In this document: positions 284 to 51,700 of the stretch, one piece after another | Numbering within the stretch: position 1 is the stretch's first letter | How the letters are laid out: each line of letters opens with the position of its first letter | Assembly: GCA_049515535.1 (NCBI GenBank) | Contig: JBEKTZ010000012.1 | Location: forward strand, 1 to 64,000 | DNA: 64,000 nucleotides | Source: Candidatus Aminicenantales bacterium | GTDB lineage: Bacteria; Acidobacteriota; Aminicenantia; Aminicenantales; UBA4085 | Reading direction: 5' to 3' | Position numbers and translations under genes: made by a program | Notes under the pieces: model-generated | Told to the model about the DNA's origin: nothing | Seen by the model: only the letters and a program-made list of their open reading frames with translations | The model's database searches: none

Positions 284-412
284 ATTTATATTAACGTGTT
301 TTATCGAAGCATAAATACGAATATCAATATCATGTAAGTGCAGCTGAACCTCCAATTTTTCTGGCGTTCTTTAGGAGAGCTTTTTGTTTCAATTACCATT
401 TCTCAATATTAA

Positions 413-4678: not shown

Positions 4679-4811
4679 GTTCTAATATCCTCTGCCTCAC
4701 TACTTAAATGATCGTTAAATTATCAATAAGATAAATTATTTTATTATATTCTCCGAATTGATCACGTTTCTAATTGTGCCGGAGACAGCCAACCTCAATA
4801 ATCTCGAGATC

Positions 4812-5609: not shown

Positions 5610-5989
5610 AACGATTCAAACCTTATTGTTATTGATTATTCATTGAGTAATGGAGCCCTTTTATAATCCCACCTTTCCTAATTATCATAACATACTTTTT
5701 ATTGGGTCAACACTCCTGCCATTCCTAGCAGTAGCCTGCATACTCGCAGTCCTTGCACCATAAATCGGTTCGAGGGAAGAAGATTCTCTGGTCGATCCCT
5801 TTGAGAGCCTGGATGACGGCCGCGTGAAGCCAATGGCAACTTGATTCAACCCGGCGGGTTTCGAGCGTAATTAGCTAGAGCCTCTTGGATTTCACGAAAT
5901 CAACGATCATCAAGGCCTTCGGAGGCTTTTGATAAAGCCTCTCAAAAGCATAGCCGTAGATCGTCAACTGAAGGGATTCATCCGCATCC

Positions 5990-25851: not shown

Positions 25852-25934
25852 TATCACGACACGCATGACGTCCCCGCGCCGGCCGGATCAATCGTCGGAC
25901 GCATCGCGTTTTTGATGATGAGGAGGAGAAGGGA

Positions 25935-27140: not shown

Positions 27141-27234
27141 GCCCTTCCCAATTTCTTGACTTCGTTCCTTCTTTGGCGATATATTCTTTATTCGTTACTG
27201 CCATCGATTACGGTGTTCGCGGAGAAGGATATTT

Positions 27235-28251
27235 TTGAAGATCGAAAGGCCGGGCGGACGCTCTATCCCGCCGGAATTGTGGGATGATTTTTTTAAAGGT
27301 AGCCGGCTGGCCTGCGCCCGTTTGATCACAAAAGTCGAGAATAGCCCGGAGTTGATACCGGAAATTCGGGACAAACTCATTCCCCATCAGAAAGGGGCGA
27401 TTCGGATCGGAATCACCGGTCCTCCGGGCGTTGGAAAAAGCACCGTCACGGCAGCCCTGGCCCTCCGGGCCCTCATGGCCGACCATTCCGTCGGGGTCAT
27501 CGCCGTGGATCCATCCAGCCCATTTACGGGCGGTGCATTCCTGGGAGACCGGGTGCGTATGCATGGTTTGAGCGGCGACCAGCACATTTTCATCCGCTCC
27601 CTGGCCTCCCGCGATGGTCATGGGGGGCTCTCCCCCGCGACTCCCCACGCGGCGGATATTTTTGACGCTTTTGGAATGGACCGGATATTCATCGAAACGG
27701 TTGGAGTCGGTCAGGCCGAGCTGGACGTGCTGACCTGCGCCGATCTTATCATTCTTGTGCTCCAGCCCGGCGCCGGAGATATCATCCAAGCGCTCAAGGC
27801 CGGGATTTTCGAGGTGGGCGATATTTTTCTCGTCAATAAAGCCGACCTGCCGGGCACGGAGACCCTTTTGGACTCTTTAAGATTTTTGTTCGAAATCAAC
27901 GGGCGCGAAAAAACAAAATCCGCCCCCCCGATTCTTCTGGCGTCGGCCATTCAAGACCAGGGGTTGGATGAGGTTTTCGCGGAGATGGAACGACAGGTCC
28001 TGGGAATCGTCCAATCCGGACGGTACCAGGAAAAGAAACGATTGCGCATGGAGCACGAAATCAAGGAATCCATCCGGCAGAATTTGTGGGAAAGATTCTC
28101 GACTCTGACGAAGGCCCGGGAGGAAATCCATGTCGTCTCCGGTCATCTCGTAAAAAATCGCCAATCCCCTTATCCATATATACGCAAAACTTGCGCTCAG
28201 ATAAAATTTGAATTCACGAATGAGAGGTCCGGTTGTGAAAACGGCGAATAA
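27235..28251 (+). CDS. meaB: MeaB/ArgK GTPase chaperone of B12-dependent mutase
   Basis: [43 protein letters not shown]. Confidence 0.92.
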
Positions 28252-29878
28252 AAAACCGGGAGAAGGACCGTATCAAAAAGCCGAGCTGCGGGACGCCGAT
28301 TTTTCGTCGATTTCGGGACGTCGGCTTCAACCGCTTTACAATTGGGAAGATTTATCATCTTTCGACGCCGCGGCGGAGCTGGGCGCCCCGGGAGAATATC
28401 CTTACACGAGAGGGATTCACCCGACGATGTACCGGGGGAGACTCTGGACCATGCGCCAATTTGCCGGGATGGGAACTCCCGCGCAAACGAACCAAAGATA
28501 CAAATTCCTTCTGGAAAAAGGACAAACCGGTTTATCGGTCGCTTTTGACAATCCGACGCTTTACGGCCTGGATTCCGATCACGCCTTGGCGGTCGGAGAA
28601 GTCGGCAAAACGGGAGTCGCCCTGGATACGACGGCCGACATGGAACGCCTGTTTCACGATATCCCCCTGGATAAAGTCTCGACTTCCATGACCATCAACG
28701 CTCCCGCGGCCTGGATCTTCACCATGTTCTTGGCCAACGCGGAAAATCAACGGATCCCTTTTGACCGGCTCCGGGGTACCCTTCAGAACGACATTTTAAA
28801 GGAATACATCGCCCAGAAGGAGTGGATCTTCCCCCCGGAACCCCACCTGCGTCTGATCACGGACCTCATGGCCTTTTGCGCGGACCATGTCCCTCAGTGG
28901 AACACGATTTCCATCAGCGGATATCATATTCGCGAGGCCGGATCCACGGCCGCCCAGGAGCTCGCCTTCACCCTGGCCGACGGCTTCACCTATGTGGAAC
29001 ACGCCGTCCGAGCGGGATTGGATATTGACGATTTCGCCCCCAGGCTGTCGTTCTTCTTCAACTCCCACCTGGATTTCTTCGAAGAGATCGCCAAGCTGCG
29101 CGCAGCTCGGCGGATTTGGGCCCGCCGCATGAAGGAAAAGTATCGGGCGAAAAATCCCCTGTCCTGGCTGTGCCGGTTTCATGTACAGACGGCCGGTTGC
29201 AGCCTGACGGCGCAACAACCGGAAATCAATATCGTTCGGACGGCCCTGGAAGCTCTGGCCGGAGTTCTGGGCGGATGCCAGAGCCTGCACACCAATTCCA
29301 TGGATGAAGCTTTGGCCCTCCCCTCGGAAAAAGCGGTGGAAATCGCGCTTCGAACCCAACAAATCATCGCCTTCGAAAGCGGAGCGGCCAACGTGATCGA
29401 TCCGCTGGGCGGTTCTTATTATCTCGAGAAACTGACTGATGAGTTGGAGGAAGAGGCGGAAAAATACTTCCAAAAAATCGACGAGCTGGGGGGCATGGTC
29501 AGGGCTATCGAACAAGGATTCTGCCAGCGCGAAATCACCCGGGCCGCCTATGAATACCAGATCGCGCTTTCCCTCAGGAGAAAAGTCCTTGTCGGCGTCA
29601 ATCAATTCATCAATGAAGGCAAAATTTTGGAAATCCCGGTCCTGGAAATCGATGAATCCGTGGAAAGGGACCAGGTCGAATTCCTGCGCAAGATCAAACA
29701 AAAACGGGACAACTCCGCCGTTCAACACCGGCTGGAGGCTTTGGAAAAAGCGGCCTCCGGGACCGGAAATCTGATTCCGCACCTGCTGGAGTGTTCGCGC
29801 GTCCAGGCCACGGAGGGTGAAATCAGCGAAGCTTTGATCAAAGTCTTTGGAGAATACCGGGAGCAACCCTTTTACTGA
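28235..29878 (+). CDS. icmA: AdoCbl-dependent acyl-CoA mutase large subunit, isobutyryl-CoA mutase type
   Basis: [17 protein letters not shown] (Phe where MCM has Tyr); [13 protein letters not shown] (Gln where MCM has Arg); [15 protein letters not shown] start chosen at 28235. Confidence 0.8.
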
Positions 29879-29903
29879 AATTTCTTAACAAGAGGAAAGA
29901 GAG

Positions 29904-30326
29904 ATGGCCGATCCAAAAATCAAAGTCATCATCGCCAAGCCGGGGCTGGACGGCCATGATCGCGGAGTCAAGATCGTCGCCCGCGCCCTGGTGGAAGCCG
30001 GCATGGAAGTTGTTTACCTCGGGCTGCAGCAGACGCCGGAATCCATCGTCCAGGCCGCCATCGAGGAAGACGCCGATGTCATCGGCCTCTCGATCTTGTC
30101 GGGAGCCCATATGACCCATTTCAAGCGGGTCAAGGAACTCATGAAAAAGTCCGGCCTCGGCGATCGCCTGTTGACAGGAGGCGGAATTATTCCCACGAAA
30201 GATCAGGAAAAACTGAAAGAAATGGGAGTCGGAAAAGTTTTCGGGCCGGGCGAGGATATTCAAGATATCGTTGAATATATCCAGAAAACCATCCAGGAAA
30301 GGAGAAAAAAGGATCATGGACTTTAA
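29904..30326 (+). CDS. icmB: Acyl-CoA mutase cobalamin-binding small subunit
   Basis: [10 protein letters not shown] (DxHxxG), [14 protein letters not shown]. Confidence 0.85.
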
Positions 30327-31461
30327 TTTCACTGAAGAACAAAAAATGGTCATCGACGGGGCGAAGAAATTCGCCGAAAAGGAGCTCGCGCCGGCTGTCG
30401 AGGAATTGGACGCCAAGCAGGAGGTCAACCTGGCCGCGCTCAAGAAACTGGGAGAGTTGGGCTATTTAGGCATGACCGTTCCGGAGGAATATGGAGGGAC
30501 GGGGTTGGGCATGGTCGCCTACGCCGGCGCCATGATCGAGTTCAGCAAGGTGGATGCGGGCACGGCGGTGGGGGTCTCGGTCCAGAATTCTCTGGTCAAC
30601 GATGCCCTCATCATGTTCGGGACGGAGGATCAAAAACGGAAATTCCTTCCGAAGTTGGCCTCCGGGGAATGGATGGGTTGTTTTTCCCTGACGGAGGCGG
30701 GCGCCGGCAGCGACCCGGGATCCCTGCGGGCCAGCGCCGTTCGGCAGGGAGATTCTTATCTTTTGAACGGCACGAAGAATTTTACGAGCAACGGCTCTTT
30801 TGCCGACGTCATCATCGCCTTTTTCTGCACGGACAAGGAAAAAGGGGCCAAGGGAATATCCGCTTTTCTCGTTTCCAAAGAGACCCCCGGATATGTCGTG
30901 GGAAAACACGAAGACAAGTTGGGGATCCGCACATCCAGCACGACGGAATTGGTGTTCACCGACTGCCGGATTCCCGCCGAAAACCTTTTAGGGCAGGAAA
31001 ATCGCGGTTTAAACATCGCCCTGGCGACATTGGATTGCGGTCGCGTCGGAATCGCTGCGCAGGCCATTGGCATCGCCGAAGCTGCCTTGGAAGAATCGGT
31101 GCGCTATTCGAAAGAAAGGACCCAGTTCGGCAAGCTGCTTTCAGAATTTCAGGCGCTGCAGTTCATGCTGGCCGACATGGCCGTAGACGTCGAAGTGGCG
31201 AAAACCATGCTCTACCGCGTCGCCTGGATAAAAGATTCGGGAAATAGGCGCTTCACCAAGGAGTCGGCCATGGTCAAACTGTTCGCCTCGGAAATGGCCC
31301 ATCGCGTCTGCCATAAAGCGCTCCAGATCCACGGGGGATACGGATTCATGAAAGAGTACAAGGTGGAGCGGCTTTATCGCGACCAGCGGATCACGGAAAT
31401 TTACGAAGGCACGTCGGAAATCCAGCGCCTGGTGATCGCCAGATCGCTTTTGACGGAATAA
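30316..31461 (+). CDS. Acyl-CoA dehydrogenase (butyryl-CoA/short-chain type)
   Basis: [45 protein letters not shown]. Confidence 0.92.
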
Positions 31462-31472
31462 GGAGAAAGGGC

Positions 31473-32246
31473 ATGTCGTATGAAATCCTGAAAATGGAAG
31501 CGGCGGAAGGCATCGCCGTTGTCACCATCTCCCGGCCCCAGGCTTTGAACGCCTTGAACTCGCGTTTTTTCCAGGAGATGGACAGTCTGATCGCCGAGGT
31601 CGGCGCTCGGGATGATATCAAAGTCTTGATTATCACGGGGGAAGGAAAGGCGTTCGCCGCGGGGGCCGACATTGCCGAAATGGCCGGAAAAACCCAGGAC
31701 CAAGCCGCCCAATTCTCTAAGGTGGGCCAGAGGACATTCCGGAGCCTGGAGCTTCTCGCCAAACCGGTGATCGCGGCGGTGAACGGGTTTGCCCTCGGCG
31801 GAGGCTGCGAGCTGGCCTTGGCCTGCGACTTCCGGATTGCCAGCATCAAAGCTAAATTCGGCCAGCCTGAAGTCAATCTGGGCGTGATCCCAGGCTATGG
31901 CGCTACGCAGAGGCTCCCCAGGCTCATCGGTCTCGGGAACGCCCTGTTCCTGCTCCTGACGGGGGAGATGATCGGCGCCGAAGAGGCCCTGCGCCTGGGA
32001 TTGGTCCAAAAAATCGCGGAACCCGACGAGCTCATGTCGGCGGCCCTTGGACTGGCAAAAACGATCGCCTCCAAAGGTCCCCGGGCCGTCAAACTGGTCA
32101 AACAAGTCACCCGTCAAGGAATCCTGATGGATTTCGAAGCCGGCTGCGCTCTGGAATCCGGAATGTTCGGTTCGCTCTTTGAAAACGAGGGGGCAGAGGG
32201 AATGCGGGCCTTTCTGGAAAAACGAGCGCCCAAATGGAAAAGCTGA
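31473..32246 (+). CDS. Enoyl-CoA hydratase (crotonase)
   Basis: AFAAGADI, AVNGFALGGGCELALACD, GQPEVNLG. Confidence 0.92.
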   Translation: MSYEILKMEAAEGIAVVTISRPQALNALNSRFFQEMDSLIAEVGARDDIKVLIITGEGKAFAAGADIAEMAGKTQDQAAQFSKVGQRTFRSLELLAKPVIAAVNGFALGGGCELALACDFRIASIKAKFGQPEVNLGVIPGYGATQRLPRLIGLGNALFLLLTGEMIGAEEALRLGLVQKIAEPDELMSAALGLAKTIASKGPRAVKLVKQVTRQGILMDFEAGCALESGMFGSLFENEGAEGMRAFLEKRAPKWKS

Positions 32247-32270
32247 TCTCGAAGGAGATGAGGGACATCG

Positions 32271-33623
32271 ATGAAATACGCTGAGCGGCTTGAAAATGTC
32301 ACTGTTTTGGGGGCCGCGGGGAAAATGGGAAGCGGCATCGTCTTGCTCGCGGCCATGGAAATGGCCGATCTGAGCCTGGAGCCCGGAAACGAATCTCTGG
32401 CCTTTTCTCTCCAGGCCGTGGATATCTCTCAAAAAGCCCTTTCGGGATTGGTGAAATATCTGCGCTCCCAGGTCCAGCGGTTCGCGGAACAAAAGGCGGC
32501 TTGGCTCCGGAAAGCCTATGAAAAGCGCGAGGATTTGATTGAAAACAAGGACGTGATCAATCAGTATGTCGAAGACGTTCTGGCCATCGTCCGTCCGGCC
32601 ACTGAGATCGAGGCATCCTATCATTCCACCCTGGTGTTTGAAGCGATCAGTGAAAACCTGGACCTCAAAGTCAAGCTCCTCTCCCGGATCATCTCTAACA
32701 ACTCGCGGAATGCCTGGTTTTTTACCAACACGTCTTCCATTCCCATTTCCGAATTGAACGATAAGGCGAATCTGAACGGCCGCCTTATCGGATTTCACTT
32801 CTACAACCCTCCGGCCGTTCAAAAACTCGTGGAATTGATTTCGGCGGAATCCACCCTTCCCGACCTGGCGGATTTTGCCAAGCAATTCGCCAAAAAGTTG
32901 CGGAAAACCGTTGTGCCTTCCCATGACGTCGCGGGTTTCATCGGGAACGGACACTTCATGAGGGATGCCTTGTACGCCGTCTCCGAGGTCGAACGGCTGG
33001 CCGAAGATTTCGGCTTGGTCAACGCGATCTACATGGTGAATAAGGTCAGTCAGGATTATCTGATCCGTCCCATGGGGATTTTCCAACTGATCGATTACGT
33101 GGGCCTCGACGTCTGCCAATGCATCTTAGGCGTGATGAACGAGCGCCTCCCCGGAGGCCGGCTCCACAGCCCTCTCGTAGACAGGTTGATCTCCCAAGGG
33201 ATTGCCGGCGGTCAATACGCCGATGGATCCCAGAAGGATGGATTCCTGAAATATGAAAAGGGACGGCCCAGCGGCGTATATGATCCTGATCAACGGGCCT
33301 ACGCGCCCTTCTCGGAGATAACGGAACACTGTCATAAAGCGTTGGGCGCCCCGCCGGATCAAGCCAAGCCGTGGAAAAGCGTGATCCAACATCCCGACAA
33401 GACAAATTACCTGCGGGGCTATTTCCAACAACTGAAAGTGATGAACACCCTGGGCGCGGATTTAGCCAAAAGATATGGACGGAAATCCAAGAAAATCGGC
33501 CTTGGGCTCGTGAACGAGAAAGTCGCCGACCGGGAAGAGGACGTCAATACCGTATTGCTGACGGGCTTTTTCCATGCCTACGGCCCGATCAACGATTATT
33601 TTGAGGGAGAGGTCAGACCATGA
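32271..33623 (+). CDS. 3-hydroxyacyl-CoA dehydrogenase family protein
   Basis: GAAGKMGSG, FEAISENLDLK, TNTSS, GFHFYNP, GFIGN, MGIFQLIDYVGLD. Confidence 0.88.
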   Translation: MKYAERLENVTVLGAAGKMGSGIVLLAAMEMADLSLEPGNESLAFSLQAVDISQKALSGLVKYLRSQVQRFAEQKAAWLRKAYEKREDLIENKDVINQYVEDVLAIVRPATEIEASYHSTLVFEAISENLDLKVKLLSRIISNNSRNAWFFTNTSSIPISELNDKANLNGRLIGFHFYNPPAVQKLVELISAESTLPDLADFAKQFAKKLRKTVVPSHDVAGFIGNGHFMRDALYAVSEVERLAEDFGLVNAIYMVNKVSQDYLIRPMGIFQLIDYVGLDVCQCILGVMNERLPGGRLHSPLVDRLISQGIAGGQYADGSQKDGFLKYEKGRPSGVYDPDQRAYAPFSEITEHCHKALGAPPDQAKPWKSVIQHPDKTNYLRGYFQQLKVMNTLGADLAKRYGRKSKKIGLGLVNEKVADREEDVNTVLLTGFFHAYGPINDYFEGEVRP

Positions 33624-34867
33624 AAAAAAGCCGGCAAAAAGTCTTTATGACGGCGGGATATGACACCATCTCCATGGGAACGGGCCGGAAGGAATTCCAT
33701 CCCAAAAAGCCCCGGCCGGGCCTTGAGGAATACATCCGGGAAGCGGGCCAGGGAACCTTGAAGCAAATCGGCGGAGGGAAGAACGTCGATGAAGGAGTGA
33801 TCAGCAATTTCATGGCGGCCCGTTTCAATAAGCAGGGCAACCTGGCCGCCCTGATTCCTTCTGTGGATGAAGACTTGAGATGGAAGCCGTGTTGCCGGGT
33901 GGAAGGGGCCTGCGGCTCAGGCGGGCTGGGACTGATTGCCGGGACAAAATCCGTGCTCGCCGAAACGGCCGAGGTCGTCCTGGCGATCGGCGTGGAAGTC
34001 CAGAACACCGTCAAGGCCATTTATGGCGCGGACATCTTAGCCGGCGCCGGCTGGTTCAAGGGCGAACGCAAGAAAGGTCATGCCTATTTCTTCCCGGCGG
34101 CTTTCAGCGTCCGGGCGGGCGCCTATTTCGAAAAATACGGCCGGGAGAAAACGCGACAGGCTTTCGCCCGCTGGTACCGGAACGCCATCGAAAACGCCCG
34201 ACTCTGCGAAACCGCCCAGGAATTCCATAATACCGTGGAAAATCTCGAATCATTGGCCTTGACGGAACCGAATCCCCAAACGTTCGTTGACCACTTGAAT
34301 GTTTTTGACTGCTCCAAAGTTTCCGATGCGGGGTCCGCCATCGCCATCGTCTCCGAAAATGGCTTGAATCGGATTAGAATCCCCAAATCCGAGGCCGTCG
34401 AAGTCGTCGGCTGGGGGCAGGTTGAAGCGGATCTGACGATTCCTCCGGAAGATCCGACCTGGCTCGACACGACGTCCAGAGCCGTGAAAAAAGCTTTGGA
34501 ATGCGCGGAAATTTCTCTCCAGGAACTTGGGACCGTGGAATGCCATGACTGCTTCACGATTTCCGGTCTTTTATCCGTGGAGGCGATCGGGCTGGCCGGG
34601 AAAGGCGAAGGAGCTGATTATATTTTAGCTGGGAATACTTCGCGGCAGGGAACCTTGCCTTTCAACACGTCCGGCGGGCTGATCGGCTGGGGACATCCCA
34701 CCGGCGGCACCGGAGTGCGGCAGGCCGTCACCATCTGGCAGCAGCTGACGGGGAAAGCTGGGAATTGGCAAATTCCGATATCGCCGGACCGCCCCTATGC
34801 GCTTTCCATCAACATGGGCGGAAACGACAAAACAGTCACGGCTATCGTCTATCGACGCGCCGAATGA
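33620..34867 (+). CDS. Thiolase (SCP2-type)
   Basis: RVEGACGSGG, ECHDCF, GHPTGGTG, NMGG. Confidence 0.88.
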   Translation: MKKSRQKVFMTAGYDTISMGTGRKEFHPKKPRPGLEEYIREAGQGTLKQIGGGKNVDEGVISNFMAARFNKQGNLAALIPSVDEDLRWKPCCRVEGACGSGGLGLIAGTKSVLAETAEVVLAIGVEVQNTVKAIYGADILAGAGWFKGERKKGHAYFFPAAFSVRAGAYFEKYGREKTRQAFARWYRNAIENARLCETAQEFHNTVENLESLALTEPNPQTFVDHLNVFDCSKVSDAGSAIAIVSENGLNRIRIPKSEAVEVVGWGQVEADLTIPPEDPTWLDTTSRAVKKALECAEISLQELGTVECHDCFTISGLLSVEAIGLAGKGEGADYILAGNTSRQGTLPFNTSGGLIGWGHPTGGTGVRQAVTIWQQLTGKAGNWQIPISPDRPYALSINMGGNDKTVTAIVYRRAE

Positions 34868-34893: not shown

Positions 34894-36036
34894 TTATTCC
34901 CCGATGAGCTCCCGGGCGATCACCAGGCGCTGGATCTCGCTCGTGCCCTCTCCGATTGTGCACAGTTTGGAATCGCGCCAGAACTTCTCGACCGGATAAT
35001 CCTTGCAGTAGCCGTATCCGCCCAAGATCTGGACGGCCTCTTCCGCGACATTAACCGCGACTTCCGAAGCGTAAAGTTTGGCTTGTGAAGAGATCAGAGT
35101 GGTCTTCCGCCCCGCGTCCTTCTCGTCGGCCGCGCATTCGGTGAGCAGCCGGGCGGCGCTGATGTGAGTGGCCATGTCGGCCAGCTTGAAACGGATGCCT
35201 TGAAAAGCCGCGATCGGCTTCCCGAATTGACGGCGCTGCTTGGCATAAGCGACGGCCGCGTCGAGCGCGCCCCGGGCGATTCCCACGGAAAGGGCGGCGA
35301 TTGAAATCCGGCCGCCGTCGAGGACAACCATGGCCTGAATGAACCCGTCGCCTTCGTTCCCCAGGAGAGCGTCCTCTCCGACGCGGCAGTCCTCGAAGAT
35401 CAACGAGGCCGTGTCGGAAATGCGCATGCCGATCTTGTCTTCGTGCTTTCCGACCGTAACCCCGGGGATGTCGAGCGGGACGAGAAACGCGGAGATGCCG
35501 TGATGATCCTTCCCCGGCTGCGTCCGCGCCATCGCCACCGCGACCCCTCCGGCTCCGGCATGGGTGATGAAATTCTTGGTGCCGTTTAAAACCCAGCCGC
35601 CGGAGTCGCGGACGGCCGTGGTCTTGGTCGCGCCGGAGTCGGACCCGGCCTCGGGTTCCGTCAACCCCCACGCGCCGATGACTTCTCCGGACGCCAGCCG
35701 GGGCACCCACCGGCGGCGTATCTCCTCGATCCCGAATAAGAAAACATGGTTCGTGCACAGGGAATTGTGGGCCGCTACAGAGAGGGCGATTCCGCCCTCG
35801 ACGGCCCCCAGCTCTTCCAGGATCGCCACGTAATGCCGGTAGGTCAACCCGGCTCCGCCGAGCTCTTCCGGAATCAGGATCCCCATCAGCCCCAGTTTGC
35901 CGAGACGGCGGAGGACGTCCAGAGGAAAATGGGCCTTCTCGTCCCATTCCCGGACATGGGGGGCGATTTCCGAGCGGGCGAAATCCCGCACCATCTCCCG
36001 GCATTCATTCAAGGATTCCAGCGTTTCAGGCGTCAT
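34894..36036 (-). CDS. Acyl-CoA dehydrogenase (probably isovaleryl-CoA/branched-chain, by context)
   Basis: [35 protein letters not shown]. Confidence 0.88.
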   Translation of the reverse strand: MTPETLESLNECREMVRDFARSEIAPHVREWDEKAHFPLDVLRRLGKLGLMGILIPEELGGAGLTYRHYVAILEELGAVEGGIALSVAAHNSLCTNHVFLFGIEEIRRRWVPRLASGEVIGAWGLTEPEAGSDSGATKTTAVRDSGGWVLNGTKNFITHAGAGGVAVAMARTQPGKDHHGISAFLVPLDIPGVTVGKHEDKIGMRISDTASLIFEDCRVGEDALLGNEGDGFIQAMVVLDGGRISIAALSVGIARGALDAAVAYAKQRRQFGKPIAAFQGIRFKLADMATHISAARLLTECAADEKDAGRKTTLISSQAKLYASEVAVNVAEEAVQILGGYGYCKDYPVEKFWRDSKLCTIGEGTSEIQRLVIARELIGE

Positions 36037-36568
36037 CGTTCCCTCCTTTTCGGCTCTTGGCGCACTCTCTAGGCTCGAGCTCGATCAGCGGCTTTTCCGA
36101 ATCGACCAGATCGCCGGCCGCCACGTGAATTTTTTTCACGATGCCCTCGATCGCGGATTTGATCTCGTTTTCCATCTTCATCGCTTCGATGACCACCAGG
36201 GTCTGGTTCTTTCTCACTTCTTCGCCTTCAGCGACATTCAGCTTGATGACCCTCCCCGGCATGGAGGCTTTAACCTGCCGGCCTCCCTCGGGCGTCCTCT
36301 CATCTCCGCCGAGAAAACGCCCCGCCTCGGGGCGGGGTTCGCAGATGACGAACTTGCGGCCCCCCGTAAAGACGAGCTTTCGCTTCCCATCCCGGGCGAT
36401 ATAGACCGTCGAGGACCGGCCGCCGGAGAGGAACATCAACTCGTTTTCGGAGACCGGCCTGATTTCGGCTTCAAGGATCGTCTCTCCATCCCGGATAACG
36501 TACGCCTTTTCCTTTTTCTCCAAGGAAATCTTCCTGAGAGCTCCGTCGACGAGAAATTCAAATTCCAT
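36026..36568 (-). CDS. Biotin carboxyl carrier subunit
   Basis: EAMKM biotinylation motif; start taken at MEFEF. Confidence 0.9.
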   Translation of the reverse strand: MEFEFLVDGALRKISLEKKEKAYVIRDGETILEAEIRPVSENELMFLSGGRSSTVYIARDGKRKLVFTGGRKFVICEPRPEAGRFLGGDERTPEGGRQVKASMPGRVIKLNVAEGEEVRKNQTLVVIEAMKMENEIKSAIEGIVKKIHVAAGDLVDSEKPLIELEPRECAKSRKGGNDDA

Positions 36569-38084
36569 GAGACCCGGCTCCTCCGATCCTCCACCGGCCC
36601 AATGTTTTCCAGGGCGCGGCGACGTCTTGTTTCGCTTCCCGGGCCGAACCGACTCCCGGCCGCGCTTCCGCAGCCAGGTCATCAAAAGCGGCCGCAGCCA
36701 GGGCCAGTCGCAGCTTGTCTTCGCTTTTTCCGCTCTCTTTCCATCCCTCGAAATAGTTCTTGATGAAAGCCGTATTTGTCCGGCCGGACCGGAACTCCGG
36801 ATGATTGATGATGTCTTTAAGAAAACCGATCGTCGTGTGAATCCCCAGGATTACAAAGTCGTCCAGGGCGGCGGCCATCCTCCGGCAAGCCGTCTCCCGG
36901 TCCTCGGCCCAGACAATCAGCTTCGCCAGAATCGGGTCATAATAAATCGGGACTTCCCAGCCGCTGTAAATGCCGCCATCAGAGCGGACTCCCGGGCCCT
37001 GCGGTTCTTTGAGGAACAAGATCTTGCCGGGAGAAGGAAGGAAATTGTTCTCCGGGTCCTCGGCGTAGATCCGGCATTCAAGGGCATGCCCCCTCTGGCA
37101 GAGATCCTCCTGCCTGAAAGTCAATTTTTCCCCGGCCGCGATCAGGATCTGTCGGCGGACCAGATCCACGCCCGTCACCAGCTCCGTCACGGGATGCTCG
37201 ACCTGGAGCCGGGCGTTCACTTCCAGGAAGTAAAAGTTGCGGTCTTTATCCAGGAGGAACTCGACGGTGCCGGCGTTGTTGTAGCCCGCCGCCTTCATCG
37301 CCTTTATGGCCGTCTCCGCCATCCGGGCCCGCAGGTCCGGATCCAGGGCCGGAGAGGGCGTCTCCTCGACGATTTTCTGGTGGCGCCTTTGGATCGAACA
37401 TTCCCGCTCGAAAAGATGGACCATCGCGCCGGCGTTGTCGGCCAGGACCTGGAACTCAACATGCCGGGGCTCTTCGATATATTTTTCGAGATACACCGAC
37501 TCATCGCCGAAAGCGGACTTGGCTTCCCGCATCCCCGCCTCGAGAGCCGGCCTCAGGTCCTTTTCCCCACGGACGATGCGCATCCCTTTTCCGCCGCCTC
37601 CGGCCGAAGCCTTGACAATCACCGGATATCCGATGGATCGGGCCGCGGCTTCGAATTCCGTCACAGATTTAGGAATGGCCTTCATTCCCGGGATGATCGG
37701 AATACCGGCTTTCTCCATCGTCTGGCGGGCGCGGACCTTGTCGCCCACCAGGGCCAACGCTCCGGAGTTGGGCCCGATGAAAACGATGCCTTCTTTCTCG
37801 CAGAGCCGGGCGAAGTCTGCGTTTTCCGCGAGAAAACCATAGCCGGGGTGGATGGCTTCGGAGCCGGTGTCATGAGTGGCTCGGATGATCCGGCCCATGT
37901 TGAGGTAGCTCTCGGCGGCGGGAGCCGGTCCGATGGGGACGGCTTCGTCGGCGAGCTGGACATGGAGGCTCTGTCTATCCGCCTCAGAATGGACGGCCAC
38001 CGTCGCAATTCCCATCTCCCGGCAGGCCCTGATTACCCTGACGGCTATCTCGCCCCGGTTGGCGATTAAAACCTTTTTAAACAT
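36558..38084 (-). CDS. Biotin carboxylase subunit of an acyl-CoA carboxylase
   Basis: IANRGEIA, HPGYGFLAEN, GGGGKGM, RECSIQRRHQK, EVNARLQVEHPVTE. Confidence 0.95.
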   Translation of the reverse strand: MFKKVLIANRGEIAVRVIRACREMGIATVAVHSEADRQSLHVQLADEAVPIGPAPAAESYLNMGRIIRATHDTGSEAIHPGYGFLAENADFARLCEKEGIVFIGPNSGALALVGDKVRARQTMEKAGIPIIPGMKAIPKSVTEFEAAARSIGYPVIVKASAGGGGKGMRIVRGEKDLRPALEAGMREAKSAFGDESVYLEKYIEEPRHVEFQVLADNAGAMVHLFERECSIQRRHQKIVEETPSPALDPDLRARMAETAIKAMKAAGYNNAGTVEFLLDKDRNFYFLEVNARLQVEHPVTELVTGVDLVRRQILIAAGEKLTFRQEDLCQRGHALECRIYAEDPENNFLPSPGKILFLKEPQGPGVRSDGGIYSGWEVPIYYDPILAKLIVWAEDRETACRRMAAALDDFVILGIHTTIGFLKDIINHPEFRSGRTNTAFIKNYFEGWKESGKSEDKLRLALAAAAFDDLAAEARPGVGSAREAKQDVAAPWKTLGRWRIGGAGSHGI

Positions 38085-38149
38085 GTCGCTTCCCCAAGAT
38101 CACGATCATTCCATCAGGCCGCCGGATTCCCCCATCGCTCGCCAAGGCT

Positions 38150-38941
38150 TCATTCGGTCCATTTTGGCTTTCTTTTTTCCAGAAAGGCGGCCATGCCCTC
38201 CTGGCCTTCCCGGCTGATCCGGAGCCCGGCGATCATCTCCGCCGTAAAGCGTTTGGCGTCCTCGAAGCTCATCCCGGGAACCCTACGGAGAAGCTCCTTG
38301 CAGCAGGCCAGCGCTTCGGGCCCGGACGAGAGGAGACGGCCGACGATGCCATCGACCCTTCCGTCCAGATCCACGGGAGCGGCGACCTCGTCAACCAGGC
38401 CGATCTCGGCCGCCCGCCGGGCATCGAACCGCTCACCCGTCAGGAATAACCGGCGGGCCCTGCTCTCCCCGGTCCTTCGCAGCACATAAGGGGCGATACA
38501 GGCCGGCACGAGGCCGATTTTCACTTCGCTCAGGCCGAGCTGCGCGTCGGTCGAAGCGACGACGATATCGCAGGCGGAGAGGAAGCCCGCGCCGCCTCCG
38601 ATGGCGGCCCCGTTCACCCGGGCGATCGTCGGCTTGGGCAGGGCGTAAAGTTCATACAGGAACTCCGCCAGCTCGAGCGATTCCCGGAGGTTCTGCTCGT
38701 AGGAATAAGTGATGATCTCGCGCATCCAATTTAAATCCGCGCCCGCGCAGAACGACTTCCCCTGGCCGGAGAGAACGATGACCCGGACATCTTCATCCGC
38801 GCCGAGGGTCCGGACGGCGTCCCGGAGTTCCCGAATCATGACGGCATTGAAGGCGTTGTGGACTTCGGGCCGGTTGAGCCTGACGCGGCCGACTTTGTCC
38901 TCGAGCGACAGAATGATCGTTTCGTAATTTTTTTCTTCCAT
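38150..38941 (-). CDS. liuC: Methylglutaconyl-CoA hydratase-like crotonase
   Basis: LNRPEVHNAFN, SFCAGADLNWM, LSEVKIGLVPACIAPYV; adjacent to the MCC subunits. Confidence 0.8.
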   Translation of the reverse strand: MEEKNYETIILSLEDKVGRVRLNRPEVHNAFNAVMIRELRDAVRTLGADEDVRVIVLSGQGKSFCAGADLNWMREIITYSYEQNLRESLELAEFLYELYALPKPTIARVNGAAIGGGAGFLSACDIVVASTDAQLGLSEVKIGLVPACIAPYVLRRTGESRARRLFLTGERFDARRAAEIGLVDEVAAPVDLDGRVDGIVGRLLSSGPEALACCKELLRRVPGMSFEDAKRFTAEMIAGLRISREGQEGMAAFLEKRKPKWTE

Positions 38942-38999
38942 TTAAGATCGCCTGAAACTCCCCGAGGTCATCCTCACGATCGTCATCAGAATTCAGCCT

Positions 39000-40607
39000 T
39001 TACATTCGGAAGATTCCAACCTTGAAATCCGGAATGGGCGCGTTCAGGCTCATGGCGATCCCGAGCGCCAAGGCCTGCCGCGTCTCAAGGGGGTCGAGGA
39101 GACCGTCGTCCCATAGCCTGGCCGTGCTGAAATACGGGCTGGCCTCAGCCTCGTATGTGGCCAGGATAGGCTTGATCATTTTTTCCCTCTCTTCCTCGGT
39201 CATTTTGACGCCCTGCTCCTGAAGCCTCTTGATTTTCACGAAGACCAGGACATTGGCCGCCTGCTCACCGCCCATGACGCTGATTCGCGCGTTGGGCCAC
39301 ATCCAGAGCAGGCGCGGGTCGTAGGCCCGGCCGCACATGGCATAATTGCCGGCGCCGTAAGAGCCGCCGACGATGACCGTGAATTTGGGCACGTCGGCGT
39401 TGGCCACGGCATGGACAAGTTTCGCCCCGTCCCTGGCGATGCCGCGATGCTCGTACTGCTTGCCGACAATAAAGCCGGTAATGTTCTGGAGAAAAACGAG
39501 CGGGATTTTGCGCATGGCACAGAGGGTGATGAAATGCGCGCCCTTGAGCGAGCTTTCAGAGAAAAGCACGCCGTTGTTGGCCACGATGCCCACGGGATAG
39601 CCCATAATGCGGGCGAACCCGCAGACCAGCGTCTGGGCGTAGAGCTCCTTGAACTCCTGGAAACGGCTTCCGTCCACGATCCGGGCGATGAGCTCTTTGA
39701 TATCAAAAGCCTTCCGTAAATCCCTCGGCACGATGCCGTACATCTCCGCAGGATCATAATCCGGCTCCTCAGGTTTGGCCGTATCCAGATCGAACCGGCG
39801 CGGCGGGGCGAGCGTCTCGACGATATTCCGGGCGATTTCGAGCGCGTGCTCATCGTTCAAGGCGTAATAGTCCGAAACGCCGGAGATGCGGCAGTGGACG
39901 TCGGCGCCGCCCAGGTCCTCATCCGAAACCTCCTCGCCCGTGGCCGCTTTGACCAACGGCGGACCACCGATGAAAATCGTCCCCTGACGGCGGACGATGA
40001 CCGTCTCGTCGCTCATCGCCGGGACATAGGCGCCGCCGGCCGTGCACGATCCCATGACAATCGAAATTTGCGGGATGCCGAGCGCCGAAAGGCGGGCCTG
40101 GTTATAGAAGATCCGTCCGAAATGCTCCTTGTCGGGGAACGTCCCCGCCTGATGGGGGAGAAAGATCCCGCCGGAATCGACCAGGTAGATGCAAGGCAGC
40201 CTGTTTTCGAGAGCCACCTCTTGGGCGCGGAGGTGCTTCTTGATGGTCATCGGGAAATAAGTGCCGCCTTTCACCGTGGCATCGTTGGCCACGACAAGCA
40301 CTTCGCGGCCGTGTACGACGCCGACGCCGGTGACCATACTCGCCCCGGGAGCTTCGTCTTCGTACATGCCGTTGGCGGCCAGGGCACTGAGCTCCAGGAA
40401 CGGCGTGTTGCGATCGAAAAGCTTATCCACTCGCTCCCGGACGAGAAGCTTGCCGCGGGATTTGTGAAGTTCGCGGGACTTGGCCGGCCCTCCCGCCTGA
40501 ACCTTGGCCAGGCGCTCCTTGTACTCGGCCACGACTTTCGTCATATGCTCGAGATTCTGCCTGTAATCCAAGCTTTGGATATCGACTTTGGATTCGATTC
40601 TGAACAT
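39000..40607 (-). CDS. liuB: 3-methylcrotonyl-CoA carboxylase carboxyltransferase (beta) subunit
   Basis: [60 protein letters not shown]. Confidence 0.9.
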
Positions 40608-40635
40608 TACCCGTTCCTTCGCTCGGCGACGGCGT

Positions 40636-41028
40636 TTATTCTTGTACGAATTTATAGCCGTAGTAGATGACGCCGGCTTCCCCTTCCTCGTAAATCTTCC
40701 GGAATTCAATCTTGACCCGGATCCCGATCTTCAAATCCTCGAATTTGCAGTCGACGATCTGGGCCGTCAGCTTCACGCCGTCATCCATCTCGGCGATACC
40801 GACGGCGTACGGGACCTGGTCGACATACTGATGCGGGGCAACACGAATGATCGTGTAGGTGAGAATTTTTCCGGACTCCGCGAGCTTCGTCTTCGTGAAT
40901 TCCCGGCCGCCGCACTGCGGACAAACCAGGCGGGGTGGGAAACAGACGTACCCGCAGTTCGTGCATTTTCCGGCTTCAAGCCGGTACCTCTGAGGAATTT
41001 CTCGCCAGTATCTCGATGGTGTCGGCAT
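40636..41028 (-). CDS. DUF35 Zn-ribbon/OB-fold protein (thiolase-HMGS scaffold)
   Basis: CTNCG..FPPR..CPQCG; G.I.TYT; FRKI.....G.I.YGYKF. Confidence 0.9.
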
Positions 41029-41040
41029 CTTGTCCTCCTC

Positions 41041-42195
41041 TCACTCCGCCTCAAAGATGTGGACGACCGAGCTCCCCCCCGTGCCACCCATGTTCTGGGT
41101 CAGGCCGAGTTTCGCGCCCCTGACCTGCCTCGTCCCCGCTTCGCCGCGGAGCTGCTTGACGACCTCGACGGCCTGGGCCACGCCGGTCGCGCCGACCGGA
41201 TGGCCCTTGGCTTTCAAACCGCCGCTGGGATTGACCGGGAATTTTCCCCGGAGCGATGTCAGTCCTTCCTCGACGGCCTTTCCTCCCCGTCCCTTCTCGA
41301 CGAGGCCCAGCGCCTCCGTGATCATGATTTCGGCAATCGTGAAACAGTCGTGGACTTCGAAGAGGTCGAGATCCTCGATTTTCCGGCCGGCCATCGCCAG
41401 GGCCTTTTGGGCGGCGATGTGGGTGGATTCAATCCAGGTGAGGTCCTTTCTCGAACTGAGGGCGATGGTGTCCGTGGCCTGGCCGGTTCCCGCGATTCTC
41501 ACCGCGGCTTTTTTCATTCGTTTGGCCAGGTCCGAGGGGCAGAGGATGACGGCCGCCGCTCCGTCCGTGATGGGAGAGCAATCCAGGATCCGCAGCGGGT
41601 CGGCGACGAGAACGGAGCACAAAACTCCTTCCACGGTGATTTTAAAAGGGAATTGGGCCAGAGGGTTCTTCGAGCCGTTGTCGTGGTTCTTGACGGCCAC
41701 CATGGCCAACTGCTCCCGCGTCGTGCCGTATTTCGCCATGTGGGCATGGGCCATCATGGCATAGAGCCCCGGAAACGTCAGACCGTGAAAGCCTTCATAT
41801 TCCTGGTCGGCCGCCGTGCCCAGGGCGTAGGTGGCTTCGTGACCGTTGACGTCGGTCATCTTTTCGACGCCGCCGACGAGCACGATATCGCTCATCCCCG
41901 AGGCTACATCGATGAATCCCTGCCGGAGGGCCAGACCTCCCGACGAGCAGGCGGACTCCACTCGCACCGTCGGAACGGGAGTCCTGCCGAGATAGTCGGG
42001 CAAGAGGGATGCCAAATGCTCCTGGCCGATGAAAAGACCCGAAGACATGCAGCCGACATACATCGAGTCAATCCGGTCCACGCCGGCGTCTTCGATCGCC
42101 AGGAGGGCCGTCTCCACAAAGATATCCCTCAGGGATTTCTCCCAGAGCTCGCCCCATTTGGTCATGCCGATACCGATGACAGCAACGTCTCTCAT
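41041..42195 (-). CDS. Archaeal-type acetoacetyl-CoA thiolase
   Basis: [35 protein letters not shown]. Confidence 0.9.
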
Positions 42196-42204
42196 CGCCG
42201 CCTC

Positions 42205-43251
42205 CTATTCTGCCTTCCGGATTTTACGGCGGTATTTGGCATAAACGCCATACTCCAGGTAAATCTTTCCGGTGTCCAGAAGGTGTCTTGTCGTGGGAGC
42301 CAAATTTCTCACTTCATCAATCCGCTTCGTCACCCTGAAGATAAAGGCATCGCTTCCGGCTCCCGACCCGTAGGAGACGAGCAGGATCATGTCTCCGGGT
42401 TTGGAGACATCCAGCGTCGCTGTCAGGCCGAGCGGGGATGATCCGGAGTACGTATTCCCCAATTTGGAAACCAGCCAGCCCGGCTCGATCTGTTTTTTTT
42501 CAAATCCCAGCATTTCCCCCACCCGGAACGGAAATTTGCCGTTGGGCTGGTGGAAAATCACGTATTGGAAATCGGAAGGCTTCATCTTGGCTTTGGCCAT
42601 GATGCCCTCGGCCGCGCCCCTGATGTGCTTGAAGTAGGCGGGGTCGCCCGTGAACCGGCCGCCGTGTTGCGGATAATACTGGTACTCGCGGCGCCAGAAA
42701 TCCGGTGTGTCCGTAGTGAAGGAAAAAGTATCGAGCGCCTCGGCGACGATGGGGTCCTTGCCGAAAATGAAAGCGGCGGCGCCGGCCGCGGCCGAATATT
42801 CGAGCGCGTCGCCGGGTGCGCCCTGCGACGTGTCGGCTCCGACGGCCAGGCCGAATCTGACTGCGCCCGCTTGAACCAGGTTCAGGGCCACGAACATCGC
42901 CTCGGTCCCGGCCTTGCAGGCGAATTCGAAGTCCGCCGTGTGGACTTCGGGTGTGGCGTTGAGCGCTTCCGCGAGCACCGTACCGCTCGGTTTCACGGCA
43001 TAGGGATGGGATTCCGAGCCGACATAAACGGCGCCGATCTCCTTGGGGTTGATACCCGCCCTTTTCAAGGCGCGCTTCGAAGCCTCCACCGCCATGGTGA
43101 TCGTATCCTGATCGGGAGAGGGCACGGATTTCTCTTCGAGCATGAGCCCCTTTTTATAGCTCGGCGCATCCGCCCCCCAGACTTTGGCGATCTCCTCGAC
43201 TTTGATCCGGTTTCGCGGGATGTAAGCCCCGTAGCCGATGATTCCAGCCAT
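42205..43251 (-). CDS. Archaeal-type hydroxymethylglutaryl-CoA synthase
   Basis: GSESHPYAVKP, EFACKAGT (catalytic Cys), DTPDFWRR, FTGDPAYFKH, FHQPNGKFP, GNTYSG. Confidence 0.92.
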   Translation of the reverse strand: MAGIIGYGAYIPRNRIKVEEIAKVWGADAPSYKKGLMLEEKSVPSPDQDTITMAVEASKRALKRAGINPKEIGAVYVGSESHPYAVKPSGTVLAEALNATPEVHTADFEFACKAGTEAMFVALNLVQAGAVRFGLAVGADTSQGAPGDALEYSAAAGAAAFIFGKDPIVAEALDTFSFTTDTPDFWRREYQYYPQHGGRFTGDPAYFKHIRGAAEGIMAKAKMKPSDFQYVIFHQPNGKFPFRVGEMLGFEKKQIEPGWLVSKLGNTYSGSSPLGLTATLDVSKPGDMILLVSYGSGAGSDAFIFRVTKRIDEVRNLAPTTRHLLDTGKIYLEYGVYAKYRRKIRKAE

Positions 43252-43572: not shown

Positions 43573-44538
43573 ATGACCGGAAAAATGATTGACCTTCAGG
43601 CCGCGGCCGCTTTGGTTCCCCATGGGGCAACGATTTCCTTCGGCGGTTTCACGACCCAGCGCCATCCCATGGCCTTTGTCTATGAACTGATCCGCTTGAA
43701 AAGACGCCGTCTCTATCTGTTTGGACATTCACCCGGCGGGGATTGGGATATTCTCATCGGGGCGGGTTGCGTGAAGCGGGTCGAACTCGCCTACGAAGCG
43801 GATGAGGCTTTCAACACGGTCGGGCCACGCTGGAGGCAGGCCGTGGAACGGGGCGAAATCGAGTGGGAGGATTACAGCAACTTCACGATGGTGGCCCGCT
43901 TCACCGCCGGCGCCATGGGAATTCCCTTTATGCCCGTTCGCAGCCTGCTCGGCAGCGACGTGCTGGGCAAAGAGGCCCTTGGGCCTGAGCGGAGGAAAGC
44001 CGATCCGCGCACCTCGACAAAAAAACTGCATGTGATGGCCTCGCCCTTCGATCCTCGGGAGCAGGTCGTGTTGGTTCCGGCGATCCATACCGATTTCGCC
44101 GTGCTGCATGTCCAGAAAGCGGCGGCCAACGGCATGGTGCGGATCGAGGGTCAGTCTTTCGCCGATATTCAGCAGGCCCTATGCGCCGATACCGTGATCG
44201 TGACCGCCGAGGAGATCGTTGATGAGGACGCGCTGCGCCGCGAACCGGAACGCAACCCGATCCCCTTCTTCGCCGTGAAACATGTCTGCCATGTTCCCTT
44301 CGGGGCCCATCCTTATGCCGTGTACAACTATTATGATTATGACCCGCTCCAATTGAAAGAGTACCATGAAGGCGGACGCGATGACGCAGCTTTCCAGGGT
44401 TACCTGGAAAAGTATGTGAACGGTGTCAAAAATCACGAGGAGTACCTGGAAGCGGTTGGCGGCCAAGAGCGGTTGGAAACACTGAAAGCGTCGCCGGCCT
44501 ATGGTTATAGCCCGAACCTGAAGCGGAGGAGATTGTAG
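43573..44538 (+). CDS. CoA-transferase subunit A (GctA/3-oxoacid type)
   Basis: FGGF...RHPMA, AGAMGIPFMP.RSLLGSD, HVQKA..NG, VTAEEIV, PFGAHP. Confidence 0.88.
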   Translation: MTGKMIDLQAAAALVPHGATISFGGFTTQRHPMAFVYELIRLKRRRLYLFGHSPGGDWDILIGAGCVKRVELAYEADEAFNTVGPRWRQAVERGEIEWEDYSNFTMVARFTAGAMGIPFMPVRSLLGSDVLGKEALGPERRKADPRTSTKKLHVMASPFDPREQVVLVPAIHTDFAVLHVQKAAANGMVRIEGQSFADIQQALCADTVIVTAEEIVDEDALRREPERNPIPFFAVKHVCHVPFGAHPYAVYNYYDYDPLQLKEYHEGGRDDAAFQGYLEKYVNGVKNHEEYLEAVGGQERLETLKASPAYGYSPNLKRRRL

Positions 44539-44540
44539 CC

Positions 44541-45311
44541 ATGGCCATCCCTGAATATACCTTGACGGAACTGATGGCGGTCGTGGCCGCCCGCGAGATC
44601 ACGGATGGCGAGGTGGTTTTCGCCGGCACCGGGTTGCCCATGCTCGGCGTGATGCTGGCCCAGCGCACCCACGCTCCCCATGGCATTATCATCTTTGAAG
44701 CAGGGACGATGGCCAGCCGACTCGCCCACGTTCCGATGTCGGTCGGGGATCCGCGCGTGATGCGCGGGGCGGCCACCGCCGCCGGACTCCTCGAGGTCTT
44801 CACCTACGTCCTGCAGGCAGGACGGGTCGACGTCGGCTTTTTAAGCGGGGCTCAAGTGGATCGCTTCGGAAACATCAACAGCACTTCGATTGGATCCGAC
44901 CATCGCCATCCGGCCGTGCGGTTCTCCGGAAGCGGCGGCGCTTGTGACATCGCCTGCCTCGCCCAGAGAACCATCGTCATTGCCAAACACGAAAAACGCC
45001 GCTTCCCGGAGAAAGTGGATTACATCACCAGCCCCGGATGGCTTGAAGGCGGGAACAGCCGGCTAATGTCCGGCCTTGTCCGAGGCGGGCCGAGCGTCGT
45101 GGTCACCACCTTGGGCGTGATGCGCTTCCGTCCGGATACGAAAGCCATCTATCTGGCCGGTTTCCACCCGGGCGTGACTCCTCAGGCCGTCGCCGAGGCG
45201 ACCGGTTTCAACCTGGATATCAAGGACGCCGTTGAGACAGCGCCGCCGACCCGGAAAGAATTGCGCATCCTCCGTGAGGAAGTGGACCCGGAGAGGATCT
45301 TTTTGAGATAG
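44541..45311 (+). CDS. CoA-transferase subunit B (GctB type)
   Basis: FAGTGLP; IIFEAG (catalytic Glu retained); AQVDRFGNINST; GSGGACD. Confidence 0.88.
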   Translation: MAIPEYTLTELMAVVAAREITDGEVVFAGTGLPMLGVMLAQRTHAPHGIIIFEAGTMASRLAHVPMSVGDPRVMRGAATAAGLLEVFTYVLQAGRVDVGFLSGAQVDRFGNINSTSIGSDHRHPAVRFSGSGGACDIACLAQRTIVIAKHEKRRFPEKVDYITSPGWLEGGNSRLMSGLVRGGPSVVVTTLGVMRFRPDTKAIYLAGFHPGVTPQAVAEATGFNLDIKDAVETAPPTRKELRILREEVDPERIFLR

Positions 45312-50116: not shown

Positions 50117-50395
50117 CGATTCTCCTTTCTAAGAATTTACACCGCAATGATGTAAGATTGACTTCATGTCTGTACTTTCTACAAAAGAAATGTTATGGAT
50201 TTATTTGGTTCTTGTTTAGATTTTAATAAAAAACTCGGGCGAAAATACCACACTCCGGCCCCCGCGATAAATTCTATTTTCTCGATCGAGGCTTTCTTGA
50301 CATTTAAAATAGCTCAGGGTATTTAATAGAGAAGAGGATGGCGAAGAAGGCTGCTTTCACTTTTTGCTTTCGATTTTTTAGGGAAGGACAACTCG

Positions 50396-51682: not shown

Positions 51683-51700
51683 ATACGGCGATAGACGGAT

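Follow-up and report, generated by a model that had tools for sequence, protein, structure and literature searches.

A conserved bacterial operon that joins an archaeal-type HMG-CoA synthase trio to methylcrotonyl-CoA carboxylase, and its possible role in leucine catabolism

Gene content of the operon and its host genome

The 64,000-nucleotide stretch of DNA analyzed here (the window) comes from contig JBEKTZ010000012.1 of a Candidatus Aminicenantales genome, which we refer to as G000 and which is 94% complete. On its minus strand, at 34894..43251, lie eight open reading frames (ORFs) that are spaced by 9-65 nt or overlap by 11 nt. Read from position 43251 downwards, these specify a 3-hydroxy-3-methylglutaryl-CoA (HMG-CoA) synthase (HMGS), a thiolase, a DUF35 protein, a carboxyltransferase, a crotonase, a biotin carboxylase, a biotin carrier and an acyl-CoA dehydrogenase, as follows.

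42205..43251, minus strand: archaeal-type HMGS, 348 aa (TIGR00748, 528 bits against a cut-off of 353)
41041..42195, minus strand: archaeal-type acetoacetyl-CoA thiolase, 384 aa (NF004720, above cut-off)
40636..41028, minus strand: DUF35 scaffold with zinc ribbon and OB fold, 130 aa (PF12172 and PF01796)
39000..40607, minus strand: beta subunit (carboxyltransferase) of 3-methylcrotonyl-CoA carboxylase (MCC), 535 aa (placed in the MCC-beta group by its ranking of PDB matches)
38150..38941, minus strand: probable methylglutaconyl-CoA hydratase, a LiuC/AtuE-type crotonase, 263 aa (from context)
36558..38084, minus strand: biotin carboxylase subunit, 508 aa (TIGR00514 and NF006367, above cut-off)
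36026..36568, minus strand: biotin carrier subunit with an EAMKM motif, 180 aa (PF00364 and translation)
34894..36036, minus strand: acyl-CoA dehydrogenase, accessory to the core (ACAD families, below cut-off)

We refer to the HMGS, thiolase and DUF35 genes as the trio, and to the trio together with the genes for MCC-beta, the hydratase, the biotin carboxylase and the biotin carrier as the seven-gene core. An initial annotation had proposed this eight-gene run with these identities, and the ORFs, family models and PDB matches all bear it out. A scan for promoters and terminators across the region returned matches no better than chance.

The closest PDB entry to the HMGS is chain I of 6ESQ (E 5e-135), with which its Glu, Cys, His and Asn motifs line up, whereas MvaS of the 5HWO type scores only 72 bits. 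The thiolase is closest to chain A of the same entry, and its CxS, HDCF and GHP motifs likewise line up. For the carboxyltransferase, the MCC-beta structure 3U9R (723 bits) ranks above geranyl-CoA carboxylase (463), propionyl-CoA carboxylase (at most 282) and glutaconyl-CoA decarboxylase (158). This gene is the sole one of its kind in G000; alignment to 3U9R and human MCC indicates that both Phe residues of the MCC-beta loop are kept, and the F-G motif is present in 134 of 136 copies. Mapped through the numbering of the human chain, the loop Phe would correspond to MCC Phe191, which excludes geranyl-CoA (PMC4673880). Judged by these residues, the carboxylase is of the MCC type, with a pocket predicted to be of methylcrotonyl-CoA size. 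The crotonase scores 151 bits against AtuE (4ZU2) and 104 bits against the Myxococcus-type 5JBW, and neither of its best families, PRK07468 and PRK05674, reaches the cut-off; its assignment as a methylglutaconyl-CoA hydratase is probable from family and operon position. The acyl-CoA dehydrogenase is, on the same two grounds, probably an isovaleryl-CoA dehydrogenase, and no model in the family search labels it with that name.

The initial annotation had pointed out that HMG-CoA lyase and HMG-CoA reductase are missing from the window, and we could extend this to G000 as a whole, in which neither enzyme was found. In particular, the lyase model NF004283 had no match, and the one HMGL-like protein of the genome is homocitrate-synthase-like and sits among lysine genes. 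Mevalonate kinase was not found either (none of nine GHMP kinases reaches a mevalonate kinase cut-off), nor were a ScoA-like gene or AtuA, a candidate acetate-releasing lyase discussed below. Given the presence of MCC and the hydratase and the absence of all of these genes, the trio is the only recognizable outlet or inlet for HMG-CoA in G000. LeuA, IlvC and the E1 component of branched-chain 2-oxoacid dehydrogenase (BCKDH) were also not found in G000, which does encode a four-subunit 2-oxoacid:ferredoxin oxidoreductase whose beta subunit is of the VOR type (above cut-off); isovaleryl-CoA can thus derive from imported leucine.

Conservation of the operon and exchange of the trio

We surveyed 61 genomes from the same family and order as G000. 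HMGS was detected in 38 of them, MCC-beta likewise in 38, and the two together in 36; all four discordant cases lie near contig ends. The core is complete and its order unchanged in 32 of the 37 relatives' HMGS loci examined, and the other five end with the contig; the acyl-CoA dehydrogenase gene lies downstream of the core in only nine. The linkage is therefore meaningful, since gene order is conserved and a lyase and a mevalonate pathway were not found elsewhere in the genome. LeuA was matched in three of the 61 genomes, strongly in two, one with the operon and one without it. We considered the operon as a complement of missing leucine biosynthesis and rejected this idea, because LeuA is missing regardless of the operon, which is consequently no substitute for it.

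A shunt from leucine to HMG-CoA had been suggested as one option. If such a shunt supplied isoprenoid synthesis by way of mevalonate, the trio being the usual point of entry for acetyl-CoA, this would agree with the role of the trio in archaea (PMC11522927). However, the reductase was not found in G000 and was matched only once, weakly, among the 61 genomes, no GHMP kinase passes, and two genes of the methylerythritol phosphate pathway, DXR and IspE, are present instead. In G000 the trio does not feed a mevalonate pathway, and we find such a shunt barely credible. The single weak reductase-like protein is L054 of genome G055 (53 bits).

AtuA was found in none of the 61 genomes, and the same query matched 27 of 91 genomes from the phylum of G061, a lineage centered on Zixibacteria, as which the record of G061 is titled. 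In this first lineage MCC-beta was detected in 83 of the 91 genomes and archaeal-type HMGS in 68, all of which carry MCC-beta. In the 15 MCC-positive genomes that have no HMGS match, AtuA directly precedes MCC-beta in 11, the operon contains a lyase in three, and a thiolase-DUF35 pair lies at a contig end in one. AtuA is immediately upstream of MCC-beta in all 27 AtuA-positive genomes (L141-L143, L145-L152, L166-L181), so that three arrangements are seen, namely trio-MCC, trio-AtuA-MCC (contiguous, as in L179-L181, or with inserted genes) and AtuA-MCC. HMGS is missing from 11 of the 27 AtuA-positive genomes but from only one of 50 AtuA-negative genomes (Fisher p 1.8e-5, overstated owing to related kin; 77 genomes, six lyase-operon genomes being left out). 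A quick tree built from 78 MCC-beta rows (11 AtuA-only, 16 with both, 26 of the 50 trio-only, six lyase and 19 from other groups) requires four changes to explain the AtuA-only state, at least three of them forced by strongly supported branches. The lyase model matches 13 of the 91 genomes. The six strong matches sit in classical MCC-hydratase-lyase operons, two of which continue with a ScoAB-type transferase and a thiolase; among the seven weaker ones, the three that were viewed belong to a CaiB/aconitase-like cluster.

The second lineage consists of 31 genomes from the class of G064, whose record is titled Eisenbacteria. Here HMGS was detected in 14 genomes and MCC-beta in 28. Nine of the 15 MCC-positive, HMGS-negative genomes have a lyase in the operon, two have a strong lyase match on another contig, and three have AtuA elsewhere in the genome, so that 14 of these 15 carry a known or suspected HMG-CoA-cleaving gene; in the remaining one the operon is cut by a contig end and AtuA was not found, the lyase not having been searched for there. 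The lyase was searched for in six trio-led genomes of the class, and five had none.

Among the 61 close relatives, only G019 and G042 are lyase-positive, and of the 37 loci it is precisely theirs that contain a damaged trio gene (an HMGS internal stop and a thiolase frameshift, at L028 of G042 and L029 of G019). We discounted this coincidence as support for an exchange, because the lyase-like genes of these two genomes lie in a separate CaiB/aconitase-like cluster and the breaks may be assembly errors; the same cluster coexists with unbroken HMGS in six Zixibacterial genomes. The recurring cluster (L049, L050, L163-L165, L252, L253) combines an HMGL-like gene with genes for a family III CoA-transferase and for an aconitase/LeuCD-like pair, to which the G019 version adds an isopropylmalate-dehydrogenase-like gene and a LysR regulator. 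It passes the HMG-CoA lyase cut-off and yet probably serves a different di- or tricarboxylate pathway.

Beyond these lineages we examined the best 80 loci of the genome collection, a set that overlaps the other genome sets, so that counts are not additive. Forty-five of them match the MCC-beta query and 45 the hydratase query, three of the MCC-beta matches reaching just 34-35% and probably being another carboxyltransferase, and none of the 80 matches the lyase or reductase queries. The core thus extends to other phyla; the records of this set bear such titles as Zixibacteria, Ignavibacteria, Coatesbacteria, Eisenbacteria, Glassbacteria, Elusimicrobiota, Planctomycetales and Cloacimonadota, any of which may be wrong. 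No HMGS match was found on plasmids. Of 144 HMGS copies, 140-144 retain the catalytic motifs, as do 121-137 of 141 thiolases for theirs. Clustering of 4431 ORFs from 117 loci, four of which contain AtuA, revealed no gene family beyond the core that is shared across phyla. In three sediment RNA runs from one study, contigs of relatives span the region; such contigs show neither level nor strand.

A possible reversal of HMG-CoA synthase, and the alternatives

Read most simply, these distributions point to three alternative ways of consuming the HMG-CoA which MCC and hydratase would produce: a lyase, AtuA and the trio. That relatives without the trio nearly always have a known or suspected HMG-CoA-splitting enzyme suggests that the trio runs backwards. 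In our best reading, the operon encodes the lower half of leucine/isovalerate catabolism, its last step being a non-orthologous one, and we put at roughly 0.65 the probability that the trio completes this pathway through reverse HMGS, giving either 2 acetyl-CoA and acetate or 3 acetyl-CoA. The operon itself is real and conserved, and within leucine catabolism it would represent a novel variant whose last step is unusual.

Under this reading, isovaleryl-CoA would come from 2-oxoisocaproate via the ferredoxin oxidoreductase, or from isovalerate via a CoA-transferase. After its oxidation to 3-methylcrotonyl-CoA, the three-subunit MCC would add a carboxyl group at the expense of ATP, and hydration would give HMG-CoA, which would then be split on the HMGS cysteine into acetoacetyl-CoA and an acetyl-enzyme. 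Acetoacetyl-CoA may reach the thiolase through the shared CoA site that has been described for the forward direction of the complex (PMC11522927), and its splitting to two acetyl-CoA would pull the reaction. The direction of flux and the fate of the acetyl group remain conjectural: the acetyl-enzyme could be released as acetate (net 2 acetyl-CoA and acetate, as proposed for AtuA with thiolase), or the acetyl group could be passed to CoA (net 3 acetyl-CoA). With the third unit leaving as acetate the reaction is downhill, and the yield equals that of lyase plus acetate CoA-transferase. Making 3 acetyl-CoA out of HMG-CoA and 2 CoA, by contrast, costs an estimated 10-25 kJ/mol and needs a push from ATP-driven carboxylation and hydration; by these energies it would be feasible but tight, and we hold this CoA-saving form only tentatively. 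Theisen et al. reportedly observed in 2004 that Staphylococcus HMGS, in reverse, gives acetoacetyl-CoA and acetate.

AtuA is among the characterized or tentatively identified candidates for the acetate-releasing lyase of a terpene pathway (PMC4847356), and its role in this step, after carboxylation and hydration, has been called expected (PMC13689101). The Zixibacterial AtuA is a 600-residue protein with PF07287 and PF23544; in one plasmid example the gene lies between those for crotonase and biotin carboxylase, and a PDB sequence search yielded no AtuA structure. Applied to HMG-CoA, the proposed AtuA reaction would yield acetoacetyl-CoA and acetate. A joint reading, in which AtuA is a third, acetate-releasing HMG-CoA lyase and the trio runs in reverse with CoA as acceptor in a widespread anaerobic pathway, strikes us as conceivable but doubtful.

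Several observations weigh against cleavage by the trio. In the literature covered here, the only activity reported for an intact trio complex is HMG-CoA synthesis from acetyl-CoA (PMC12960953), and every absence on which the exchange argument draws rests on incomplete genomes. The trio coexists with AtuA in 16 of the 68 HMGS genomes of the first lineage, with an operon lyase in three, and also in G180. Coexistence fits ongoing displacement but also a synthase kept for another purpose. Contiguity of trio, AtuA and MCC, on the other hand, speaks in favor of cleavage, since a synthase co-expressed with an HMG-CoA cleaver would presumably waste acetyl-CoA. In the three lyase-operon genomes the trio is a stand-alone, divergent copy. 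In G157, the sixth of the trio-led genomes searched in the second lineage, a lyase match belongs to the CaiB-type cluster, and another lyase-like gene, which scores below the cut-off, faces the trio-led operon. As for AtuA, its identity as an HMG-CoA-cleaving enzyme is only suspected, a review gives the acetate-releasing reaction to LiuE (PMC4097962), and the AtuA proteins found here are only 36-38% identical to their best plasmid relatives. Finally, trios that stand alone are frequently seen outside the two lineages, which indicates that the trio can serve other roles. The divergent trios of the lyase-operon genomes (L160-L162, in G089, G110 and G070) have HMGS 54-56% identical and lie beside a classical lyase operon in the same genome.

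The trio might accordingly serve another acyl-CoA reaction, either thiolysis of acetoacetyl-CoA only or supply of HMG-CoA for another product, while an unrecognized enzyme cleaves HMG-CoA. Trios without MCC nearby make up about half of the 61 loci L074-L134, some being close to beta-oxidation genes, the trio and a lyase can coexist, and a Pseudomonas complex with a dead HMGS carries out thiolysis only (PMC12960953). Against this stand the intact HMGS motifs, the lack of any further gene family conserved in the operon across phyla, and the way in which trio loss tracks the presence of AtuA or lyase, and we judge it decidedly improbable. At two of the stand-alone loci (L124 and L129, in records titled Bacteroidales), the trio is followed by genes for an acyl-CoA dehydrogenase, a crotonase, a hydroxyacyl-CoA dehydrogenase and a second thiolase, which resemble a cluster neighboring the operon in the window; MCC is not within range there.

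Two further rivals involve the genes on either side of the operon.

43573..45311, plus strand: GctA/GctB-like CoA-transferase pair, divergent from the operon (PF01144; start codon of the first gene inferred)
25054..34867, plus strand: cluster converging on the operon, with EtfB, EtfA, MeaB, a two-subunit B12 acyl-CoA mutase and further beta-oxidation genes

The CoA-transferase beta subunit scores 216 bits against chain B of 1POI and 57-59 bits against 5MZW-5N03, and it retains the GctB-type catalytic Glu. AibB has the CoA-transferase fold minus this Glu, a difference that is only indirectly visible in a mutant-chain alignment. An AibAB identity of the divergent pair is therefore ruled out by its likeness to GctB and its retained Glu; the pair adjoins HMGS in two of the 37 relatives' loci. 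The convergent cluster, whose beta-oxidation genes encode an acyl-CoA dehydrogenase, a crotonase, a 3-hydroxyacyl-CoA dehydrogenase and a thiolase, is probably for valine/isobutyrate breakdown. Its mutase has Phe and Gln at the positions of the Tyr and Arg of methylmalonyl-CoA mutase, which we take to be isobutyryl-CoA mutase-like.

The initial annotation favored a reversed liu pathway, akin to the myxobacterial AIB route, in which the biotin enzyme acts as a decarboxylase on the way to isovaleryl-CoA. In the version that we weighed, the trio makes HMG-CoA from three acetyl-CoA, and dehydration, MCC run in reverse (yielding ATP and bicarbonate) and reduction give isovaleryl-CoA, for use as an iso-fatty-acid primer or, in fermentation, as an electron sink in the form of isovalerate. 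In favor of this route, the known activity of the complex is in the forward direction, and none of the catalytic motifs has been lost; BCKDH E1 was not found in G000, myxobacterial AIB is a precedent for making isovaleryl-CoA from acetyl-CoA, and biotin carboxylases are reversible in principle. However, AibAB was not found, the nearby transferase being GctB-like, the reductive enzyme lies outside the core (9 of 37 loci), and the VOR-type enzyme gives a direct supply from leucine. Moreover, MCC and the hydratase persist where the trio has been exchanged for lyase or AtuA, neither of which is known to act as a synthase. Every complete copy of the operon retains the ATP-using biotin carboxylase subunit, and decarboxylation by the biotin enzyme thus finds no support. 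Overall, we think the synthetic route unlikely, and the preference for it in the initial annotation is not supported.

An anabolic or bidirectional use, in which acetyl-CoA gives rise to isovaleryl-CoA and VOR converts this to 2-oxoisocaproate by reductive carboxylation, the mutase cluster serving valine likewise, would account for the pairing in G000 of the oxidoreductase with the absence of LeuA and IlvC, and the steps are near equilibrium overall by rough estimates. Plain auxotrophy explains the pattern, however, LeuA being missing with or without the operon, and we rate this use as very improbable.

Elsewhere in the window, a eukaryotic-type citrate synthase (TIGR01793, above cut-off) is encoded at 23384-24703 on the plus strand. 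The region 48755-56639 encodes two adjacent glutamate dehydrogenases and, after them, two large proteins that carry PEP-synthase-type ATP-binding domains; a nucleotidyltransferase domain is present in one of the two large proteins as well. The stretch 1-6000 has a GC content of 34-40% (against ~57%), encodes a Hypoth_Ymh protein and a 1421-aa ORF at 413-4678 without a Pfam match, and was probably acquired.

Significance and comparison with known systems

HMG-CoA synthase is commonly regarded as a one-way biosynthetic enzyme. Genome reconstructions score isovalerate breakdown as carboxylation, lyase and beta-oxidation (PMC7382037). Should HMG-CoA be cleaved by the trio, leucine breakdown could be completed in many uncultured phyla that are now scored as incapable of it, perhaps at a higher ATP yield, as the CoA-acceptor form would save one thioester, worth about one ATP, relative to the lyase route. 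It would also provide a physiological reverse HMG-CoA synthase and a simple, testable substrate for AtuA; the exchange of trio and AtuA makes trio reversal and AtuA-family catalysis addressable by one assay with a purchasable substrate. A full-text literature search, with most subscription papers outside its reach, found no description of this operon. The main text of PMC12960953 contains no mention of leucine, isovaleryl or carboxylase, and its supplement of 1,030 bacterial trio clusters may include the arrangement.

The nearest structural relatives of the HMGS and thiolase form the Methanothermococcus thermolithotrophicus complex (6ESQ, 6ET9), with which the trio shares the same three genes, the E-C-H-N tetrad and HDxF, residues required for HMG-CoA synthesis (PMC12960953). 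Unlike that system, the operon has a bacterial host without reductase or mevalonate kinase, and its trio is joined to MCC and hydratase and would work in the cleaving direction. The trio thus appears to belong to the archaeal-type complex by sequence and not by pathway, and its proteins may form such a complex physically. Other bacterial three-gene HMGS-thiolase-DUF35 units, PhlABC, MucABC and PfACAT/HMGS-DUF35, have lost the HMGS tetrad and some of them HDxF (PMC12960953), whereas the trio here keeps both.

Pseudomonas aeruginosa liuABCDE combines dehydrogenase, MCC and hydratase in one operon (PMC9636800), a make-up that the operon described here probably shares; in contrast to liuABCDE, it has no LiuE lyase or ScoAB, splits MCC alpha into carboxylase and carrier genes, and places the trio first. 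The myxobacterial AIB route (MvaS, LiuC, AibAB, AibC) shares the use of HMG-CoA synthase and, probably, of methylglutaconyl-CoA hydratase to join acetyl-CoA and isovaleryl-CoA, but the operon has an archaeal-type HMGS, a biotin carboxylase instead of AibAB, and no AibC-type reductase. The atu module (carboxylase, hydratase and AtuA) meets the operon in its Zixibacterial copies, in which AtuA replaces the trio or adjoins it. Unlike in the atu module, the carboxylase here is of the MCC type, with a Phe that would exclude geranyl-CoA, and G000 itself is without AtuA; the products proposed for AtuA, 3-oxoacyl-CoA and acetate, match those of HMGS in reverse.

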